A stretch of 64,000 nucleotides of DNA. Source: Escherichia phage BB1. The stretch is taken from sequence record NC_106597.1, one strand, 5' to 3'. A program made the position numbers and the translations under genes. Positions within the stretch are counted from its first letter, which is position 1. Every line of letters starts with the position of its first letter. This document shows positions 7,095 to 15,605 of the stretch, piece after piece. The notes beneath the pieces were generated by a model that had not been told where the DNA came from, searched no databases, and saw only the letters and a program-made list of their open reading frames with translations.

Positions 7095-9662
7095 TTGAAA
7101 ATCGCAGTAGTTGATAAAGCTCTAAACAACACTCGTTATGATAAACATTTCCAGCTATACGGCGAGGAAGTTGATGTATTCCATATGTGTAACGAGAAGT
7201 TATCTGGTCGTTTGCTTAAAAAGCACATTACTATTGGAACACCAGAAAACCCATTTGATCCTAATGATTATGATTTTGTTATACTAGTAGGTGCCGAACC
7301 TTTCCTGTACTTTGCAGGTAAGAAAGGTATTGGTGATTATACCGGTAAACGTGTAGAGTATAATGGATATGCTAACTGGATTGCGAGTATCAGCCCAGCC
7401 CAGTTACATTTTAAACCTGAAATGAAACCAGTTTTTGATGCAACAGTAGAGAATATCCACGATATTATCAATGGTCGTGAGAAGATTGCAAAAGCTGGTG
7501 ATTACCGTCCTATTACTGACCCTGATGAGGCGGAAGAATATATCAAGATGGTGTATAATATGGTTATCGGACCTGTCGCATTCGACTCCGAAACCTCAGC
7601 ACTATACTGTCGAGATGGTTATCTGCTTGGTGTTTCTATGTCTCACCAAGAATATCAGGGTGTATATATCGATTCTGATTGTCTCACAGAGGTTGCAGTA
7701 TATTATCTCCAGAAAATTCTGGATAGTGAAAACCACACTATTGTTTTTCACAACTTGAAGTTTGATATGCACTTTTATAAGTACCATCTGGGACTTGCTT
7801 TTGATAAAGCGCATAAAGAACGCAGGCTCCATGATACCATGTTGCAGCACTATGTTCTAGATGAACGTCGTGGTACTCATGGCTTGAAATCTCTAGCGAT
7901 GAAGTACACCGATATGGGTGACTATGACTTCGAACTAGATAAGTTCAAAGATGATTACTGCAAAGCACATAAAATCAAGAAAGAAGATTTCACCTATGAT
8001 TTAATTCCGTTTGATATTATGTGGCCTTACGCTGCGAAAGATACAGATGCTACCATACGTTTGCACAACTTCTTCTTACCAAAAATTGAGAAGAATGAAA
8101 AACTTTGCAGTCTGTATTACGATGTTCTAATGCCTGGTTGTGTATTCCTACAGCGTGTTGAAGATCGTGGTGTACCTATTTCTGTTGATCGTTTAAAAGA
8201 AGCTCAGTATCAGTTAACCCATAATCTGAATAAAGCCCGTGAGAAACTGTATACTTATCCAGAAGTCGTTCAGCTAGAAAAAGACCAGAACGAAGCATTT
8301 AACCCAAACTCTGTTAAGCAGCTACGTGTTCTTCTGTTTGATTATGTTGGTTTAACTCCAACAGGTAAACTGACGGATACTGGAGCAGATTCTACGGATG
8401 CAGAAGCTCTGAATGAACTGGCTACGCAGCATCCAATTGCTAAAACTCTGCTAGAGATTCGTAAGCTGACTAAGCTAATTTCTACTTATGTTGAGAAAAT
8501 TCTTCTGAGTATTGATGCAGATGGTTGCATTCGTACTGGTTTCCACGAACATATGACTACTTCTGGTCGTCTGAGTTCTTCTGGTAAACTGAACCTGCAA
8601 CAGTTACCTCGTGATGAATCTATTATCAAGGGTTGTGTAGTAGCTCCTCCTGGGTACCGTGTAATCGCGTGGGACTTAACAACTGCGGAAGTTTACTATG
8701 CTGCTGTTCTATCTGGTGATAGAAATATGCAACAGGTATTTATCAACATGAGAAATGAACCTGATAAATACCCTGACTTCCACTCTAACATCGCACACAT
8801 GGTATTTAAGCTCCAATGCGAGCCTCGTGATGTTAAAAAGTTATTCCCAGCTCTGCGTCAGGCTGCTAAGGCAATTACCTTCGGTATTTTGTATGGTTCT
8901 GGTCCGGCTAAAGTAGCTCATTCTGTTAACGAAGCTCTTCTGGAACAGGCTGCTAAGACAGGAGAACCGTTTGTTGAGTGTACTGTTGCTGATGCGAAGG
9001 ACTATATCGAAACTTACTTCGGTCAGTTCCCGCAGCTTAAGCGTTGGATTGATAAGTGCCACGATCAGATCAAGAATCATGGATTTATCTATAGTCACTT
9101 TGGTCGTAAACGTCGTCTGCATAATATCCATTCAGAAGACCGTGGCGTTCAGGGTGAAGAAATTCGTTCTGGGTTTAACGCAATCATTCAGTCTGCTTCT
9201 TCTGATAGCCTACTTTTAGGTGCTGTAGATGCAGATAATGAGATCATTTCTCTTGGCCTAGAACAAGAGATGAAGATTGTTATGCTGGTTCACGACTCCG
9301 TAGTTGCTATTGTTCGTGAGGATTTGATCGACCAATACAATGAAATCCTGATTCGTAATATTCAGAAAGACCGTGGTATTAGTATTCCTGGCTGTCCGAT
9401 TGGTATTGATTCAGATTCTGAAGCTGGAGGTTCTCGTGACTACTCTTGTGGTAAGATGAAGAAACAGCACCCATCAATCGCTTGTATTGATGATGATGAA
9501 TATACTCGTTATGTCAAGGGTGTATTACTTGATGCAGAGTTCGAGTATAAGAAACTAGCTGCAATGGATAAAGAGCATCCAGATCATAGCAAATACAAGG
9601 ATGATAAGTTTATTGCTGTATGTAAAGATTTGGATAACGTGAGAAGGATTCTCGGTGCTTAA
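7095..9662 (+). CDS. DNA polymerase, family A, with 3'-5' exonuclease domain
   Basis: Exo motif FDSETSALY; motif B RQAAKAITFGILYGSG; motif C LVHDS; TTG start 7 nt after AGAGGAG; 855 aa, as recalled for T5 polymerase. Confidence 0.9.
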   Translation: MKIAVVDKALNNTRYDKHFQLYGEEVDVFHMCNEKLSGRLLKKHITIGTPENPFDPNDYDFVILVGAEPFLYFAGKKGIGDYTGKRVEYNGYANWIASISPAQLHFKPEMKPVFDATVENIHDIINGREKIAKAGDYRPITDPDEAEEYIKMVYNMVIGPVAFDSETSALYCRDGYLLGVSMSHQEYQGVYIDSDCLTEVAVYYLQKILDSENHTIVFHNLKFDMHFYKYHLGLAFDKAHKERRLHDTMLQHYVLDERRGTHGLKSLAMKYTDMGDYDFELDKFKDDYCKAHKIKKEDFTYDLIPFDIMWPYAAKDTDATIRLHNFFLPKIEKNEKLCSLYYDVLMPGCVFLQRVEDRGVPISVDRLKEAQYQLTHNLNKAREKLYTYPEVVQLEKDQNEAFNPNSVKQLRVLLFDYVGLTPTGKLTDTGADSTDAEALNELATQHPIAKTLLEIRKLTKLISTYVEKILLSIDADGCIRTGFHEHMTTSGRLSSSGKLNLQQLPRDESIIKGCVVAPPGYRVIAWDLTTAEVYYAAVLSGDRNMQQVFINMRNEPDKYPDFHSNIAHMVFKLQCEPRDVKKLFPALRQAAKAITFGILYGSGPAKVAHSVNEALLEQAAKTGEPFVECTVADAKDYIETYFGQFPQLKRWIDKCHDQIKNHGFIYSHFGRKRRLHNIHSEDRGVQGEEIRSGFNAIIQSASSDSLLLGAVDADNEIISLGLEQEMKIVMLVHDSVVAIVREDLIDQYNEILIRNIQKDRGISIPGCPIGIDSDSEAGGSRDYSCGKMKKQHPSIACIDDDEYTRYVKGVLLDAEFEYKKLAAMDKEHPDHSKYKDDKFIAVCKDLDNVRRILGA

Positions 9663-10152
9663 TTTCAAATTGCCCGTATATGCTTTACGGGCGTTTGTAT
9701 CAATTGAGCAAGAAGGTGATTATTCCGTAATTACAACAAGATATAATAAATATGTGCTAGATAATAGGAAGTTGCCTGGCACATTTTCTCAACGTAGGCT
9801 TATTCTATTTGAGAAACGGAAAGAATTACCATACAAGCTCTATCCTATTAGAGGTAGAATATCAATGTTGTCCCAATTAGTTGGGTCAAAGCGTAGCCAA
9901 TTTATAGATTCTGATGGAAATCTTATTAACTGGAAGAAAACTACGTTCTATGATGTTGTCACCTCTAAAGTTTTGCATTCAGCTAGAATCTATAACGGAA
10001 AATACCAATGCTATGTAGCTAAAGTTCCATATCCATTTGTATTATCCTATGTTCCAGCTTATATAAGCTATATTCTGGTAAATAATAGCCCTGTTATTTA
10101 TCAAGTCCATCAAGAGGAGCCTGAAATTCCTAGACTTAGAATAAAATTATGA
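9655..10152 (+). CDS. hypothetical protein
   Basis: GTG-initiated ORF overlapping the polymerase stop; AT-rich codon usage. Confidence 0.4.
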   Translation: MLNFKLPVYALRAFVSIEQEGDYSVITTRYNKYVLDNRKLPGTFSQRRLILFEKRKELPYKLYPIRGRISMLSQLVGSKRSQFIDSDGNLINWKKTTFYDVVTSKVLHSARIYNGKYQCYVAKVPYPFVLSYVPAYISYILVNNSPVIYQVHQEEPEIPRLRIKL

Positions 10153-11501
10153 AGGTTGTTATATCTAATAAAGCCTATTTCAAGCCCGATGATGAACTTT
10201 GGGATTACTGTAGTAAGCAAACCACTTATCACATAGAGACAATGACTAGTAAATACCCTATTATGTATAAGAATAGTGGTGTTGTTGCCAAAGAGATTAA
10301 GTGGATTCCTATTACGCGTCTGGACTTACTAGATGCTAAAGGAGTAAAATACGAATTAGTCGATAAACGCACATTAGCTCCAGTAGATATACCAAAACCT
10401 AAGTTCAAGCTGCGTGAAGAAGACCAGCTCCCAATATATGAAGAGTGCGATGATACCTGTATTATTAATGGTAAGCCTGGATTTGGCAAAACTATCCTAG
10501 CTCTTGCACTTGCATATAAATTTGGCCAGAAAACTTTGGTAATTTGTACCAACACATCTATTCGTGAAATGTGGGCGGCAGAAGTTCGTAAATGGTTTGG
10601 GTTTGAACCAGGTATCATAGGTTCTGGGAAATACAATATTGATCCACCAATTGTGGTCAGTAATATTCAAACAGTGAATAAACATGCGAATAATCTTTCT
10701 AAAGTATTCGGTACTGTTATAGTTGATGAAGTTCACCATTGTGTGGCTACAACTTTCACTAACTTCCTAGAAATATCATGTGCCCGCTATAAGATTGGAC
10801 TATCCGGTACATTAAAACGAAAAGATGGTCTACAAGTTATGTTCAAAGATTTCTTTGGATATAAGATCTTTAGTCCGCCGGTTAATAATACTGTTGCACC
10901 TACAATCCATAGGTACTCCGTGCCTGTTGAGTTATCGGGTAACCAAAACGTACCATGGGCATTACGTGCTAATGATGTGTATAATCATCCTGAATATCGA
11001 GAGACTATTATAAACCTGGCGCATTTATATGTGAATATGGGGCATAAAGTGCTCATTGTAAGTGACAGAACAGAGTTGATCCAAACAGTACTAGAAGCTC
11101 TTGCACAGCGTGGTGTTACAACATACGAAATTATAGGGGCAACCCACTTGGATGACCGATTAAAAATTCAGGAAGATATAGCAAAAGGTGGACCTTGTGT
11201 ACTTGCAGCAGCTCAAAGTATCTTCTCTGAAGGTATTTCCCTTAATGAGCTGTCTTGTTTAATAATGGGAAGTCTCATTAATAATGAATCTCTAATCGAA
11301 CAGCTTGCAGGACGTGTTCAACGTATTGTCGATGGTAAACTCGACCCTATTGTTGTAGATCTAATTATGAAAGGTGGCACTGGACTAAGACAGGCTTCCG
11401 GACGTATGGCAGTATATCGTAACAACGGGTGGAAAACTATTACCATGACTCCGGAAAAAGCAGTTCAATTAGCTAAAATTGCATTTGGCAACAGCTCATA
11501 A
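10149..11501 (+). CDS. SF2 helicase (T5 D10-like)
   Basis: Walker A GKPGFGKT; Walker B DEVHH; ATGA overlap with upstream ORF. Confidence 0.7.
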   Translation: MKVVISNKAYFKPDDELWDYCSKQTTYHIETMTSKYPIMYKNSGVVAKEIKWIPITRLDLLDAKGVKYELVDKRTLAPVDIPKPKFKLREEDQLPIYEECDDTCIINGKPGFGKTILALALAYKFGQKTLVICTNTSIREMWAAEVRKWFGFEPGIIGSGKYNIDPPIVVSNIQTVNKHANNLSKVFGTVIVDEVHHCVATTFTNFLEISCARYKIGLSGTLKRKDGLQVMFKDFFGYKIFSPPVNNTVAPTIHRYSVPVELSGNQNVPWALRANDVYNHPEYRETIINLAHLYVNMGHKVLIVSDRTELIQTVLEALAQRGVTTYEIIGATHLDDRLKIQEDIAKGGPCVLAAAQSIFSEGISLNELSCLIMGSLINNESLIEQLAGRVQRIVDGKLDPIVVDLIMKGGTGLRQASGRMAVYRNNGWKTITMTPEKAVQLAKIAFGNSS

Positions 11502-11513
11502 ATGATGTATAAT
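11485..11513 (+). promoter_or_regulatory. sigma70-type promoter with CATAAATTTGAGAGAG initial transcribed region
   Basis: -35 TTGGCA, 17-bp spacer, -10 TATAAT 11508-11513. Confidence 0.5.
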
Positions 11514-11584
11514 ATATACATAAATTTGAGAGAGAAAGTTTCGGATTGATAAGAAAGTCCGAAGCAGAAAAATAAAAATTTTAG

Positions 11585-11614
11585 TTGCTAAATTCTCTCG
11601 AAATCTAGTATAAT
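11585..11614 (+). promoter_or_regulatory. sigma70-type promoter with CATAAATTCGAGGAG initial transcribed region
   Basis: -35 TTGCTA 11585-11590, 18-bp spacer, -10 TATAAT 11609-11614. Confidence 0.55.
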
Positions 11615-11721
11615 ATATACATAAATTCGAGGAGAAAACAAAAATTAAATTCTTCGATTATGAAAAGCTATACTTACTAGCTAGAGGAAATTCCGACCTA
11701 ATTATTAAGCTATTCAAAAGA

Positions 11722-12006
11722 ATGCTTACAGAGCCTGATGCTCACCAATTATTGGTCGGTTCTTCATTCATTTTGAATGAATCAACAATAGTTGATAATC
11801 CAAATAAATTGTCTAATAGACAACTGGCAGAATATCTAGGAATTTTAAGTCTACGAAATTATGCCGAATACAAGTTTACAAACGATCCTAGTTTGGACAT
11901 ACAATATGTTCCAGTATGGATACCACGTTTAGTAATCGACACTAACCCACTAATCGCAATTAACAAATCGAAATTAATCTTTAAAGAGGAAATAAAATAT
12001 GGCTAA
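11722..12006 (+). CDS. hypothetical small protein (doubtful)
   Basis: ORF without RBS, lying in a long leader downstream of two strong promoters. Confidence 0.25.
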   Translation: MLTEPDAHQLLVGSSFILNESTIVDNPNKLSNRQLAEYLGILSLRNYAEYKFTNDPSLDIQYVPVWIPRLVIDTNPLIAINKSKLIFKEEIKYG

Positions 12007-12772
12007 GTCTTGGGGCGAAACTACTGGCGGTTCTAATGATAAAATCGAATTCCTGAAGTTCAACAACGGTATCACTCGTGTTCGTATCGTTTCTGGTGTT
12101 CTTCCACGTTATGTCTATTGGCTGACTAATAAAGAGGGTAGCGTAGCTCCTTTCGAATGTCTCCGTTTTAACCGTGACAAAGAGAGCTTTGTTCGTGGTA
12201 AAGCCGATCCGGTTCATGAGATGGGCTTCTTCGAGAAAGAGCTGGATAAAGATGGTAATCGTGTTCCGCTGAAACCGAAGAAAAACTATATCGCTTTTGT
12301 TATCGACCGTTCTGATAACAAACTGAAAGTAATGGAAGTCAAGGCTACTATTCTGAAAGGCATCCAGTCTATCATGAAGCAGTTGAATCTGGCAACCCCA
12401 TTTGATATTGATATTTCTATCGAGAAAAAAGGTAAAGGTTTCGATACTGAGTATGACGTACAGCAGATTGCTGCTATGCAGTTCCAGATTAAGCTGCAAG
12501 ATCCTAACAGTGCAGAATCTAAGCAATATGCTGCAGACGTAGATCTAATCGGTGAAGCTATGTGTGACGAAGATGGCGACATCATTAAGTTCGAAAAAGT
12601 TCCTTCTCTGGAACAAACCTATCCGGTTCCTACCTATGAAGAGCAGAAAGAAGCGATTCAAGCCTTCATGGAAGGTCGTGAGAATAAAGATGATGATGCC
12701 AAATCTGGTAATAGCAATGCGGGCTCCCAGAAAGGTATTGACTCAGAAGCTGCAAGCGATCTGGACGACTAA
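11999..12772 (+). CDS. D11-position protein; possible ssDNA-binding protein
   Basis: Good RBS AAAGAGGAAA; host-like codons; acidic C-terminal tail (SEAASDLDD); terminator follows. Confidence 0.4.
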   Translation: MAKSWGETTGGSNDKIEFLKFNNGITRVRIVSGVLPRYVYWLTNKEGSVAPFECLRFNRDKESFVRGKADPVHEMGFFEKELDKDGNRVPLKPKKNYIAFVIDRSDNKLKVMEVKATILKGIQSIMKQLNLATPFDIDISIEKKGKGFDTEYDVQQIAAMQFQIKLQDPNSAESKQYAADVDLIGEAMCDEDGDIIKFEKVPSLEQTYPVPTYEEQKEAIQAFMEGRENKDDDAKSGNSNAGSQKGIDSEAASDLDD

Positions 12773-12778
12773 TAAATA

Positions 12779-12804
12779 GAGGGGCTTCGGCCCCTTTCTT
12801 TTTA
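12779..12804 (+). terminator. rho-independent terminator
   Basis: GGGGC-TTCG-GCCCC followed by TTTCTTTTT. Confidence 0.75.
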
Positions 12805-12808
12805 ACCA

Positions 12809-13786
12809 ATGAGAATATTATTTAGTGCTGATCATCATATCAAACTAGGACAAGATAAAGTTCCAAAGGAATGGCAGAAGCGTCGCTTCCTGATGCTAGG
12901 AGAACGGTTAAATGATATATTCCATAATCATAACTGTGATCTTCATATTGCTGGTGGTGATATACTTGATGTTGCCGACCCGTCGTCAGAAGAAATAGAG
13001 CTGCTTGAACAGTTCATGTCAAGACTCGACCATCCAGGCAAAATCTTTACTGGAAATCATGAAATGTTAACTAAAACCATTTCATGTCTATATCACTATG
13101 CAGGAGTTATTAATAAAGTAACTAGTGGAAAGTGGGAAGTAATTACCAAACCATATCGTTCTCCTGAATTTGATATTGTTCCGTATGATGAGATCCATAA
13201 ATCTAAGTGGAAACCATCTGAATCAAAACTATGTTTCACGCATGTTCGCGGTGAAATCCCTCCGCATGTAAAACCAGAAATTGATCTAACTAAGTACAAC
13301 TGTTATGATACTGTAATTGCTGGCGATTTACATTCTTATACTAATAGCCAGACTATCGGATCTACTAGACTCCTCTACCCAGGGTCTCCATTAACTACAT
13401 CGTTCCATAGAGAACGCACAAAAGGTACAAATGGTTGCTTTATCATTGATACCGACACATTAAAAGTAGAATGGATTGAACTCGGTGATTTACCACAACT
13501 GATTCGTAAAACAATCGGAGCTGGTGAAGAGATGGAACCTAGTGATTATGATCGTGTAGTCTATGAAGTTACTGGTGACGTTGTTCAATTAAAGTCTATC
13601 AAAGACTCTGATTTATTAGATAAGAAGATTAACCATCGAGTTACTAAAGACGCTAAGTTAAATCTTGTTGATCTTGATATGTTAGGCGAACTTGAACTTT
13701 ACTTCCGTGAAGTCGAGAAGCTATCTCAAGGCGACATTGATAGAATCTTGGCTAGAGCTGCGAAATATGTCAAAGATTACAATTAA
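12809..13786 (+). CDS. SbcD/Mre11-like nuclease
   Basis: Calcineurin-like phosphoesterase motifs in order: ADHH, GGDILD, GNHE, GDLH. Confidence 0.75.
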   Translation: MRILFSADHHIKLGQDKVPKEWQKRRFLMLGERLNDIFHNHNCDLHIAGGDILDVADPSSEEIELLEQFMSRLDHPGKIFTGNHEMLTKTISCLYHYAGVINKVTSGKWEVITKPYRSPEFDIVPYDEIHKSKWKPSESKLCFTHVRGEIPPHVKPEIDLTKYNCYDTVIAGDLHSYTNSQTIGSTRLLYPGSPLTTSFHRERTKGTNGCFIIDTDTLKVEWIELGDLPQLIRKTIGAGEEMEPSDYDRVVYEVTGDVVQLKSIKDSDLLDKKINHRVTKDAKLNLVDLDMLGELELYFREVEKLSQGDIDRILARAAKYVKDYN

Positions 13787-15605
13787 GACACTAAAATTTA
13801 GTAACGTTATGTCTTACGGTAAGGACATCGTAATTCATTTCGATAAGAATCCAGTTACTCAACTAATTGGTGGCAATGGGCTAGGGAAATCCACCATTGC
13901 TACTGTTATTGAAGAACTATTTTATAATAAGAACTCACGCGGTATTAAGAAAGATGCTCTGTTCTCTTGGTCTTCTCCGAAAAAAGAGTATGATATGCAC
14001 GCTTATTTCTCGAAAGATGAAGATGAGTATGAACTGCATAAAGTAGTTAAGTCAACTGCTAAAGTAACTCTTATTAAGAATGGGGAAGATATTAGTGGAC
14101 ACACGGCAACCCAAACATACAAGATGATTGAAGAGATTATGGGTGGTGACTTCCAAACATTCACCAAACTAATTTATCAATCAGTGGGTTCCAATCTAGA
14201 CTTTCTAAAAGCAACAGATGCAACACGTAAGGCTTTTCTTGTTAACTTGTTCAATCAAGAACAGTACAAAGAAATGTCAGAAACTATTAAGGCTGACCGT
14301 AAAGAAATAGCAAATACCTTAAATAATTTGCAGGGCCAAATGGCTGTAATTACGAAAATCCTTAATGGAAAGAATAACTTGGGAACCTTACAAGAACCAG
14401 TCGAAGTGCCGGAGTTTGATGAAGAGCCATTAGCACAAGAACTTACTGAATCGAAAATTAAGGCGGCATTAGCCAAGTCTCAAGAGGCTAATATTACTAA
14501 ATTGCGTAATTTGGACAAAGCTGTACAAGTTGCCGAACAATCTTTCGAGCCTTTTAAAAATTTGCCTGCGCCCACTGACCAAAACGAAGAGATCTCAAGT
14601 GTTACGCGTGACCTAACGATTGTGACCTCACGTGCGGGCGAAGTTAAGAAACGTTATCAGAAGTTCAAGCAAGAGGCTTCAAATACTGAATGCCCTACCT
14701 GTGGTACTCATCTAGATACAACTGCTGCTCAAAAAGCAATGGATATGGCTAGAACAGAATATGATCCTCTGTTCAAAGAGAAGCAATCTCTTGAAGCTAA
14801 GCTAGAACAGTTGAAGAAAGAACAACTTGAGTATGTTGCGTATACTAGAGCAAAGGATGCTTTGGATAAAGCAGTGGTAGCTAGAGACGAGTTCAAAAAT
14901 TCAATGAGTGATGCTTCTTTTGAAGAACTCAATGTGCAAATCCTACAGGTGCAAATCCGACAATTAGAACAGGAAATCGCTGATGGGCGTTCTAAGGTTG
15001 CAATTGCTAAAGAACATAATGCAAATGTTGAGTTAGCCAATGCAAAATATAAAGCGAAACTAGAGCAGATTGAGAAAGCTGAAGCAGAAATGTCCGAGAT
15101 TACTTCTAAACTGGATGGAGTATCCGAAGCTGTTGCTGATCTCGATATTCTGATTGCTGCATTAAAGAATCTAGTAGGGTATAAACTAGAGCATAGTGTG
15201 AAAGTATTTGAAGAGCTAATTAATAAATACCTTTCAATTATGACTGGTGGTAAATTCGCACTTGGATTTGAACTTGATGAAACAAAATTACAAGTAGTAA
15301 TCTTCAATGATGGAAACCGTACCAGTATGGAGAACTGCTCTACTGGTCAGCAAAGTCGAATTAATCTAGCAACCCTGTTAGCTATTCGGATGCTGTTAAC
15401 ATCTATTAGTAAAGTTAATATTAATCTTCTATTCCTTGATGAAGTAATTAGCTTTATTGATACAAAAGGACTTGATACTCTCGTTGAACTATTAAATGAG
15501 GAAGAGAGTCTAAATTCTATCATTGTTTCTCATGGGCATACGCATCCACTAGCTCATAAGATTACTGTCAAAAAAGATGCAGAAGGATTTTCCTACTTAG
15601 AATAA
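13767..15605 (+). CDS. SbcC/Rad50-like ATPase
   Basis: Walker A GGNGLGKST; long coiled-coil; central CPTCG zinc hook; C-terminal LLFLDEV; start moved to Met26 of track ORF. Confidence 0.75.
   Translation: MSKITIKTLKFSNVMSYGKDIVIHFDKNPVTQLIGGNGLGKSTIATVIEELFYNKNSRGIKKDALFSWSSPKKEYDMHAYFSKDEDEYELHKVVKSTAKVTLIKNGEDISGHTATQTYKMIEEIMGGDFQTFTKLIYQSVGSNLDFLKATDATRKAFLVNLFNQEQYKEMSETIKADRKEIANTLNNLQGQMAVITKILNGKNNLGTLQEPVEVPEFDEEPLAQELTESKIKAALAKSQEANITKLRNLDKAVQVAEQSFEPFKNLPAPTDQNEEISSVTRDLTIVTSRAGEVKKRYQKFKQEASNTECPTCGTHLDTTAAQKAMDMARTEYDPLFKEKQSLEAKLEQLKKEQLEYVAYTRAKDALDKAVVARDEFKNSMSDASFEELNVQILQVQIRQLEQEIADGRSKVAIAKEHNANVELANAKYKAKLEQIEKAEAEMSEITSKLDGVSEAVADLDILIAALKNLVGYKLEHSVKVFEELINKYLSIMTGGKFALGFELDETKLQVVIFNDGNRTSMENCSTGQQSRINLATLLAIRMLLTSISKVNINLLFLDEVISFIDTKGLDTLVELLNEEESLNSIIVSHGHTHPLAHKITVKKDAEGFSYLE

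Follow-up and report, generated by a model that had tools for sequence, protein, structure and literature searches.

A probable AUU-initiated early gene, T5.125, behind the tandem promoters P31A and P31B of T5-type phages

What is expressed from two strong promoters that are followed by a strong Shine-Dalgarno sequence and by no conventional start codon within reach of it? The question arises in a stretch of 64,000 nucleotides from Escherichia phage BB1 (NC_106597.1), here called the window, which is 99.3% identical to phage T5 (AY543070). A preliminary description, made from the letters alone, saw at this locus a long leader with no proper gene start, and suggested that it might hold a small RNA or a regulatory 5' UTR. 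Our comparative analysis points to another reading. The region is very probably a T5 early unit in which P31A and P31B drive T5.125 and then D11 up to a terminator, and in which T5.125 would initiate at AUU 11644.

Tandem promoters and the early transcription unit

P31A (11485..11513, + strand) consists of a -35 element TTGGCA at 11485-90, a 17-nt spacer and a -10 element TATAAT at 11508-13, and its -35 sits within the last codons of helicase D10. P31B (11585..11614, + strand) has TTGCTA at 11585-90, an 18-nt spacer and TATAAT at 11609-14. The two promoters match the consensus at 11 of 12 and 10 of 12 positions, share an exact 20-nt core (GTATAATATATACATAAATT), and rank best and third-best among the + strand promoter matches between 9000 and 14000. 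Two tandem strong promoters with -10 elements at 11508 and 11609 had been proposed from the sequence; they are sigma-70 promoters of the T5 early type and already known, being annotated in T5 as P31A and P31B. The labels vary: P31A is 'promoter P31A' in AY543070 and 'repeat c copy 7' in AY587007, and P31B goes by P31B, T5P38 or 'putative promoter' across three T5 records. P31A is kept in Epseptimavirus. Transcription is predicted to start at about 11520 from P31A and at about 11621 from P31B.

The preliminary description had also assigned T5-type initial transcribed sequences to both promoters. The window holds 10 copies of the motif TATAAT-N6-ATAAAT, where 2.35 would be expected, and no shuffle out of 100 contained 10 or more; this enrichment shows that the 'T5-type initial transcribed sequence' is a real recurrent motif. 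Behind P31A it reads ATAAATTTGAGAGAGAAA (11520..11537, + strand) and includes an SD-like GAGAGAG tract. P31B is preceded by an A/T-rich block, AGAAAAATAAAAATTTTAG (11566..11584, + strand), which forms its UP-like upstream part, and the block AAAATTTTAGTTGCTAAAT upstream of P31B also precedes promoter-like sites at 203, 2595 and 6608 of the window.

P31B belongs to a standard T5 arrangement, an early promoter joined to a translation-start cassette. PN25-type cassettes of this kind, known from the work of the Bujard laboratory, are used in expression vectors. P31B resembles them in its TTGCTA-like -35, its A/T-rich upstream block, its TATAAT -10, its transcribed ATAAATT-GAGAG/GGAG and its start codon about 30 nt past the -10, and differs from them in that this codon is ATT; when cassettes are compared, the other T5 cassettes carry ATG at the position where P31B has ATT. 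P31A departs from the PN25 type in another way, as a promoter and SD-like tract without a gene behind it.

The gene behind P31B, T5.125, is also called T5p123 or 'D10-3'', and its stop overlaps the start of D11 (ATGGCTAA). D11 (11999..12772, + strand), which comes second in the transcription unit of P31A and P31B, is a single-strand DNA-binding protein according to RefSeq and has its own SD, AGAGGA; a Pfam search of D11 returned no match. Its start is where the next well-supported gene had been placed before. The unit ends at an intrinsic terminator with a G+C-rich stem and a T-run (12778..12797, + strand), which is also annotated in AY543070.

A candidate AUU start for T5.125

The Shine-Dalgarno sequence GAGGAG (11629..11634, + strand) is followed by a 9-nt A-rich spacer (AAAACAAAA) and then by ATT (11644..11646, + strand), which we propose as the true initiation codon of T5.125. 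This ATT and ATG 11722 share one reading frame, which stays open back to 11614, behind an in-frame stop at 11611-13; ATG, GTG and TTG are absent from the frame before 11722. The earlier statement that GAGGAG lacks a usable start was thus right in that the first in-frame ATG, GTG or TTG is at 11722, and wrong in passing over the ATT at 9 nt. The SD:anti-SD duplex energy is -8.9 kcal/mol before 11644, -0.9 kcal/mol at ATG 11722 and -6.0 kcal/mol before D11; no other orthologue compared pairs more strongly with the 16S 3' end than T5 does before 11644. Across T5-type genomes, SD and start are separated by 8-10 nt. Within the window, ATT 11644 is also the only near-cognate codon that has an SD and precedes the first canonical start of its ORF by more than 10 codons. 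The corrected CDS, a member of PHROG 4258, would run from 11644 to 12006 (+ strand) and encode 120 aa.

Orthologues agree with this longer product along its whole length. In a tblastn search with the 120-aa sequence, 903 of 905 phage records aligned from residue 1-4, with identity falling as low as 45% in Vibrio phages. Across Demerecviridae, orthologue CDSs begin at the codon homologous to ATT 11644, which is ATG in Epseptimavirus and in Klebsiella, Providencia and Vibrio phages, GTG in Vibrio D13 and TTG in the KKP_3711 type. Positions 1-120 of the 120 in PHROG 4258 align with residues 1-120 of T5.125 (E = 7.5e-62), and homologues in a set of 5.8 billion proteins are mostly 116-122 aa long. 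The locus would therefore have a proper gene start after all: the SD appears to serve an ATT homologous to the start codon of all orthologues that were examined from outside the T5 genus.

The codons upstream of 11722 also behave as coding sequence. Between T5 and Epseptimavirus, codons 2-26 have a pN/pS of 0.128 and codons 28-120 one of 0.107. Variants within the ATT clade are synonymous in 25 cases and non-synonymous in 8 (p = 5e-11), with 6 and 1, respectively, falling in codons 2-26, and no frameshift or stop interrupts the T5.125 ORF in 30 T5-type sequences. By these comparisons, 11644-11721 is protein-coding and under purifying selection. The AlphaFold model of the 120-aa protein has a pLDDT of 93.2, and residues 1-30, at 95-97, contribute one strand and two helices to a single domain.

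The ATT itself is conserved. It occupies the start position in each of the 30 T5-type sequences that were read, which comprise the window, 22 of 22 IMG/VR loci and 7 of 7 metagenome contigs. An 86-nt probe carrying ATT is matched at 100% identity in 161 of 212 GenBank records and its ATG version in none; the other 51 records differ somewhere in the probe. The sister genus provides the closest comparison. The Epseptimavirus orthologue (for example Salmonella phage EH7 WMM35387.1, 120 aa) is 91-92% identical to the T5.125 protein and, as in T5, lies between helicase and D11 with tandem promoters and the hairpin discussed below. Its start codon is ATG and its SD, GATGAGAG, is weak (-2.9 kcal/mol), whereas T5 has ATT behind the much stronger GAGGAG. 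The relation of SD strength to start-codon type is not clean family-wide, as two ATG orthologues have values of -7.2 and -8.7 kcal/mol.

Taken together, the starts of the orthologues, the family profile, the pN/pS ratios, the AlphaFold model, the conservation of ATT and the weaker SD of the sister genus argue for an AUU-initiated gene. T5.125 most likely starts at ATT 11644 and is probably translated at a low level, and we infer from the sequence comparisons that ribosomes initiate at this AUU in vivo. In the library searched, literature queries on AUU starts in T5, on T5.125 and on P31A/B returned nothing relevant, searches for T5 early-protein proteomics or ribosome profiling found no dataset, and a T5 RNA-seq study with DRT4 (PMC12783706) does not mention the locus.

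We considered whether RNA structure might bear on this start. A stem that could in T5 sequester the SD by pairing it with codons 3-5 (11627-34 / 11650-57) was discarded as a conserved element, with a z of -1.16 and no conservation, and no consensus structure around the translation start was found across orthologues.

IF3 discriminates against AUU. In E. coli, AUU supports initiation at roughly 1-2% of the AUG rate (bioRxiv 10.1101/063800). These two properties suggest a purpose for the codon, namely to keep the T5.125 protein scarce while D11 is made abundantly from its own SD on the same very strongly transcribed mRNA. The 30S subunit would bind the strong GAGGAG, the initiator tRNA would be used at AUU 11644, nine nucleotides past it, and the product would be the 120-residue protein. 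AUU would in this way throttle T5.125 expression. P31A, as a second and upstream copy of the promoter core, would add transcripts with a 124-nt 5' UTR and a hairpin.

The P31A leader and its hairpin

A real leader is present only on P31A transcripts, as a 5' UTR of about 124 nt. Transcripts from P31B have a leader of only about 23 nt, followed at 11644-11721 by coding sequence and not by the long leader of the preliminary description. The stem-loop reported near 11545-11570 is present at 11538..11565 (+ strand), as GUUUCGGAUU[GAUAAGAA]AGUCCGAAGC, and is contained only in P31A transcripts. Its 10-bp stem has an energy of -14 kcal/mol and a z of -6.65, and none of 200 shuffles was equally stable; the whole P31A leader also folds better than its shuffles (z = -4.0).

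It is possible, though in our judgement unlikely, that 11515-11720 acts as a small RNA or regulatory 5' UTR, either as a P31A riboregulator built on the hairpin or as an operator for D11 autoregulation like the T4 gene 32 leader. The stability of the hairpin and of the leader would fit such a role, as would the two G-U pairs of the stem, which give the hairpin of the + strand RNA a greater stability than that of its complement. The segment 11506-11580, which includes the hairpin, is the longest run identical between T5 and Epseptimavirus in 1.76 kb, but part of this identity is accounted for by promoter elements, namely the -10 of P31A together with its initial transcribed sequence, and the UP block of P31B. 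Klebsiella phages retain the 3' arm of the hairpin with a relocated 5' arm and a different loop, of 3 nt. Against the proposal, the hairpin is kept in only part of the subfamily and is missing in relatives further removed, and among single-genome variants of its stem three break pairing, two keep it and none is compensatory. A longer-range helix in the P31A leader, GAGAGAG/CUCUC (11525-33 / 11594-11602), was set aside; Epseptimavirus, which has a different P31B spacer, does not conserve it. A scan of 11300-12200 against Rfam at E up to 10 gave only two chance-level matches on the minus strand, the best at E = 0.23 and 18.9 bits, where the gathering score is 100. The coding character of 11644-11721 also speaks against the proposal.

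A discrete small RNA, as first suggested, would need an end. An A-tract rather than a U-tract lies 3' of the hairpin, and no terminator-like site was found on the + strand between 11514 and 12778; with the next terminator only at 12778-97, a discrete small RNA is unlikely. The hairpin was also rejected as a terminator in either direction: the + strand lacks a U-tract, and on the minus strand, where there are no genes nearby, the G-U pairs become A-C mismatches.

Three small ORFs in this leader were read by hand and set aside. The frame of a 9-codon ORF from TTG 11547 has no start in the Klebsiella-phage version. A 22-codon ORF from ATT 11545 has GTT or TTT in T5-type variants, and its frame likewise lacks a start in Klebsiella phages. 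A 20-codon ATG ORF behind P31A in Klebsiella phages is closed in T5 by TAA 11550.

A bolder combination of these elements would make the AUU start, behind its strong SD and on a very heavily transcribed early mRNA, a regulatory device that ties production of a replication-cluster protein to the IF3-to-ribosome balance of the infected cell, with the P31A hairpin and A/U-rich tract serving as a feedback operator for D11 in the manner of T4 gene 32. By analogy this may be conceivable, but we hold it to be distinctly unlikely. In a leader of the gene 32 type, a structured nucleation element is followed by an unstructured A/U-rich stretch that covers the RBS of the SSB gene itself. In P31A transcripts the hairpin and the A/U-rich tract precede T5.125, not D11, whose own SD is 350 nt downstream. 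If the combination were true, the sister genus, with ATG and a weak SD, would be a naturally rewired version of this control point. For the hairpin, our guess is a role in mRNA stabilisation or processing; the 124-nt P31A-specific 5' UTR and its conserved hairpin may yet have a regulatory role.

The annotated start and known AUU-initiated genes

Returning to T5.125 as an AUU-initiated gene, the database annotation offers a simpler account of its start. All annotated T5-type records that we inspected give a 94-aa protein from ATG 11722, so that the first 26 residues (MKFFDYEKLYLLARGNSDLIIKLFKR) are missing from database entries, and in a collection of 15 billion proteins the 94-aa form is found on 177 contigs and the 120-aa T5-type form is absent. 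If the annotation were correct, the 26 upstream codons would be an untranslated relic left by a change from ATG to ATT. Indeed, the frame has no canonical start codon other than ATG 11722. However, gene callers cannot propose ATT, and the uniform annotation is therefore not independent evidence; the NCBI pipeline annotated one copy as 5'-'partial', 125 aa long and beginning EEKTKIKFFDYEK. The ATG (11722..11724, + strand) corresponds to the internal codon Met27, a position that is M, I or L in orthologues, and it has no SD of note. The preliminary description was correct that ORF 11722..12006 lacks a ribosome binding site, and this ATG is not a credible start. A relic would also be hard to reconcile with upstream codons that stay open and change mostly synonymously, in comparisons between genera as well as inside the ATT clade, with an SD before ATT that grew stronger rather than weaker, and with residues 1-30 that are integral to a confidently modelled fold. 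We consider the annotated start very improbable.

That T5.125 is instead a dying gene in the T5 genus, inactivated by the change from ATG to ATT and intact only through recent ancestry, would suit a protein without known function and T5-type copies with no more than 8 differences in 363 nt, which indicates a young clade, but is scarcely credible given the synonymous excess within the clade, a sign of continuing purifying selection, the uninterrupted frames and an SD stronger than that of the sister genus.

An AUU start for T5.125 is not a new kind of mechanism. The E. coli gene infC, which encodes IF3, takes part in an IF3 feedback loop, and pcnB encodes poly(A) polymerase I. These are the two confirmed AUU-initiated genes of E. 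coli (bioRxiv 10.1101/063800). T5.125 resembles both in having an SD-preceded AUU, in using the E. coli translation system and in the low output expected of a weak codon. It differs in being a phage early gene, driven by a very strong promoter and preceded by a strong SD, and in showing no sign of a feedback loop like that of infC, and its AUU comes from comparative analysis. A second precedent is ebpA of Enterococcus faecalis, which starts at ATT and had been wrongly annotated from an ATG 120 bp downstream; the ATT was verified by stop-codon insertion and by ATT/ATG swaps (PMC4447247). As in ebpA, a downstream ATG is annotated in T5.125 in place of ATT, and attenuated expression is proposed. 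The organism and the protein are different, and the T5.125 start is drawn from sequence comparison, unlike the experimentally verified start of ebpA.

T5 is one of the classical model phages, and expression technology makes heavy use of its promoters. If our reading is true, it would add a rare AUU start, conserved throughout a genus, to those of the E. coli translation system, and correcting the start would put right the annotation of the protein family and of the 212 GenBank records that match. The sister genus, with ATG and a weak SD in a near-identical cassette, would serve as a natural control, and this contrast would allow direct tests of how SD strength is traded off against the start codon and of how sensitive the start is to IF3.

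Promoters and the start codon of T5.125

Over the 701 bases around this locus, identity to phage T5 and its closest kin is 99.3-99.6%, and 440 phage records match. The T5 annotation (AY543070) orders the + strand as the helicase gene D10 (end at 11501), 'promoter P31A', 'promoter P31B', the hypothetical protein gene T5.125 (11722-12006, 94 aa), D11 (11999-12772) and a terminator ending the unit (12778-97), where a terminator-like site was also found. The two strong tandem promoters noted in the preliminary description, P31A (TTGGCA-17-TATAAT, -10 at 11508-13) and P31B (TTGCTA-18-TATAAT, -10 at 11609-14), are both present and are already known. They are the best and third-best promoter matches on the + strand of 9000-14000 and have an exact 20-nt core in common; the other two T5 records mark P31B alone as a promoter, and in one of them the P31A core is 'repeat c copy 7'. 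Their T5-type initial transcribed sequence also holds up, as the window contains 10 copies of TATAAT-N6-ATAAAT where 2.35 would be expected, a count reached by no shuffle. Elsewhere in the window, T5 early cassettes have the form TATAAT-N6-ATAAATT-(G/A)A..GAG..-ATG, with ATG about 30 nt past the -10, and the P31B cassette carries ATT where that ATG stands.

The GAGGAG at 11629-34 had been described as lacking a usable start codon. It is true that no ATG, GTG or TTG follows at a usable distance, but ATT 11644-46, 9 nt past GAGGAG and in frame with the annotated gene, had been missed. The annotated ATG at 11722 is, as claimed, essentially devoid of a Shine-Dalgarno sequence (-0.9 kcal/mol). Its frame is open back to 11614, and a start at 11644 gives a 120-residue product. 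When that product was compared with phage records by tblastn, the alignment began at residue 1-4 in 903 of 905 cases, with identity declining through Klebsiella phages (67%) and Providencia phage PR1 (51%) to Vibrio phages (45%). The codon that corresponds to the T5 ATT by homology is the annotated start in Epseptimavirus (the sister genus) EH7, Klebsiella Roth49, PR1 and Vibrio Ceto, all with ATG, and in Vibrio D13, with GTG; Vibrio phage pVp-1 also has ATG there. The pattern also holds in fourteen IMG/VR loci of greater divergence and in the metagenome contigs that are not T5-type, with TTG in the type represented by Enterobacter phage KKP_3711. Residues 1-120 match the PHROG 4258 profile over all of its 120 positions (E = 7.5e-62), and homologues in a 5.8-billion-protein set are mostly 116-122 aa long at 94-100% query coverage. 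Met27, the annotated start, is not conserved (M, I or L in orthologues), and the FDYEK-Y-L motif, which lies within the supposed leader, is one of the family's better conserved stretches. The true start of T5.125 is therefore probably the homologous ATT; if so, a newly recognized AUU start extends through the whole genus, and the annotation of a model phage is 26 residues short.

The stretch before 11722 evolves in the manner of protein-coding sequence. In comparisons of T5 with six Epseptimavirus genomes, pN/pS is 0.128 for codons 2-26 and 0.107 for codons 28-120. Within the ATT-bearing clade the whole gene has 25 synonymous and 8 non-synonymous variants, against a neutral expectation of about 22% synonymous (binomial p = 5e-11); in codons 2-26 the counts are six and one, and the clade shows no frameshifts or stops. 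This synonymous excess and intact frame make a decaying gene very unlikely and indicate that the upstream codons are still translated in ATT phages. An AlphaFold model from 17 family members (mean pLDDT 93.2; 95-97 for residues 1-30) predicts residues 1-30 to be a strand and two helices of one compact domain, all of which a 94-aa product would lack. The features of the preliminary description all exist, and its interpretation stands only in part, since the Shine-Dalgarno sequence is followed by an in-frame ATT, the probable start.

The 94-aa form is annotated in every T5-type record inspected, and its exact sequence occurs in 177 contigs; a 15-billion-protein collection lacks the 120-aa T5-type sequence, whether M or I is taken as its first residue. 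One NCBI pipeline record holds a 5'-'partial' 125-aa protein beginning EEKTKIKFFDYEK; this homology-guided pipeline detected the extension but without a legal start codon. The literature searched yielded no paper on T5.125, a T5 AUU start or P31A/B. A whole-window scan for near-cognate codons that follow a Shine-Dalgarno sequence and precede the first canonical start returned no case comparable to 11644.

Truncated annotations also occur elsewhere in the family. In KKP_3711 (L005:595-957; also L092) the annotation is truncated to 85 aa, and the TTG at the homologous start lies 1 nt past a -10; pVp-1 (L009:592-954) is annotated at 67 aa despite its ATG. An out-of-frame mini-ORF at 11660-11680 (ATG AAA AGC TAT ACT TAC TAG), within the first T5.125 codons, is probably fortuitous, as its ATG is absent in Epseptimavirus (gattacgag). 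In the mechanical ORF list, the DNA polymerase ORF (7095-9662) has TTG as first start, and the 165-aa T5.123 (9655-10152), between polymerase and helicase, has GTG.

Extent of the probable ATT start and Shine-Dalgarno strength

ATT is found in the window, in 22/22 T5-type IMG/VR loci and in 7/7 T5-type metagenome contigs, 8 to 10 nt from the Shine-Dalgarno sequence across T5-type loci. An 86-nt probe across the site matches 212 GenBank phage records, of which 161 agree with the ATT version at every position and none with an ATG version. Epseptimavirus loci have ATG in 6/6 cases. Every outgroup has a canonical start, from which we conclude that ATT is derived and has become fixed in the T5 genus. 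The start-codon change is accompanied by a change in the Shine-Dalgarno sequence: CGAGGAG in T5 pairs with the 16S 3' end at -8.9 kcal/mol, versus -2.9 for GATGAGAG in Epseptimavirus, and the most diverged 50-nt bin between the two (16 differences) is that of the P31B spacer and Shine-Dalgarno sequence. Across the whole family a relation between Shine-Dalgarno strength and start-codon type is suggestive only (-7.9 for a GTG orthologue; -7.2 and -8.7 for two ATG orthologues).

The P31A leader and its hairpin

A long leader, of about 124 nt, is specific to transcripts from P31A; it comprises the initial transcribed sequence, a 10-bp hairpin and an A/T-rich tract that is the P31B upstream block and recurs at other promoter-like sites. 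The stem-loop reported near 11545-11570 was located at 11538-11565 (-14 kcal/mol, z = -6.65). It had been proposed that the leader encodes a small RNA or acts as a regulatory 5' UTR; no terminator was found after the hairpin and no match in Rfam, and a specific regulatory role is possible but unsupported. Within 1.76 kb, T5 and Epseptimavirus share no identical stretch longer than 11506-11580, which has a chance probability of about 0.05 by a rough estimate at ~13% divergence. In Klebsiella phages the hairpin keeps the same 3' arm, with the 5' arm relocated and a 3-nt loop, and this different half-site spacing argues for a role at the RNA level rather than as a protein-binding DNA repeat. Among T5-type genomes, three single stem variants break the stem and two preserve it, with no compensatory changes, and more distant relatives lack the hairpin. 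In PR1, Ceto and similar relatives, the place of P31A is taken by a small gene that has a promoter of its own; P31A may thus have outlived a gene that was lost and now act as a second promoter for T5.125-D11. Some Epseptimaviruses (EH7, L010:1-435; likewise L032 and L037) have a gene for an HNH homing endonuclease (Pfam HNH_3, E = 6e-15) directly upstream of P31A; the eight final helicase codons come after it and include the P31A -35.

Function and expression of T5.125

The T5.125 product has no Pfam match, and a BFVD search returned family members only. The gene adjoins D11, a single-strand DNA-binding protein gene in RefSeq, in each of the seven annotated relatives examined, where it follows either the D10 helicase gene or an inserted one; this context suggests a replication-related accessory role. 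A distant orthologue (41% identity) in IMGVR_UViG_2974604416_000001 (115.7 kb; L081:501-860) has TAG in frame at codons 13, 29 and 55, and neither TAA nor TGA in that frame. It could belong to a T5-like phage with TAG reassigned, or be a pseudogene.

The confirmed AUU starts in E. coli are infC and pcnB only, and AUU initiation there runs at about 1-2% of AUG (bioRxiv 10.1101/063800). Enterococcal ebpA (E. faecalis) starts at ATT, where annotation had wrongly chosen an ATG further downstream, and this ATT attenuates expression (PMC4447247). By our model, T5.125 would be translated from AUU at a low rate, partly offset by the strong Shine-Dalgarno sequence and an A-rich unstructured spacer, and D11 would be made in quantity off the same mRNA from its own Shine-Dalgarno sequence. 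The end of T5.125 overlaps the start of D11 (ATGGCTAA), whose Shine-Dalgarno energy is -6.0 kcal/mol. The second-longest T5/Epseptimavirus identical run (11975-12036, 62 nt) spans this overlap, the D11 Shine-Dalgarno sequence and the first D11 codons, which suggests strong constraint on the region where D11 translation begins.

In Klebsiella phages (L004:560-600, L069/L070:460-503, L091) the orthologue's ATG lies 4 nt past the -10 TATAAT of the proximal promoter, so that the transcript probably has no leader; upstream of this ATG is a tandem array of three promoter cassettes without genes. It is tempting to conjecture that the unusual starts in related clades (Klebsiella phages, the KKP_3711 TTG and the D13 GTG) fit selection for modest expression.
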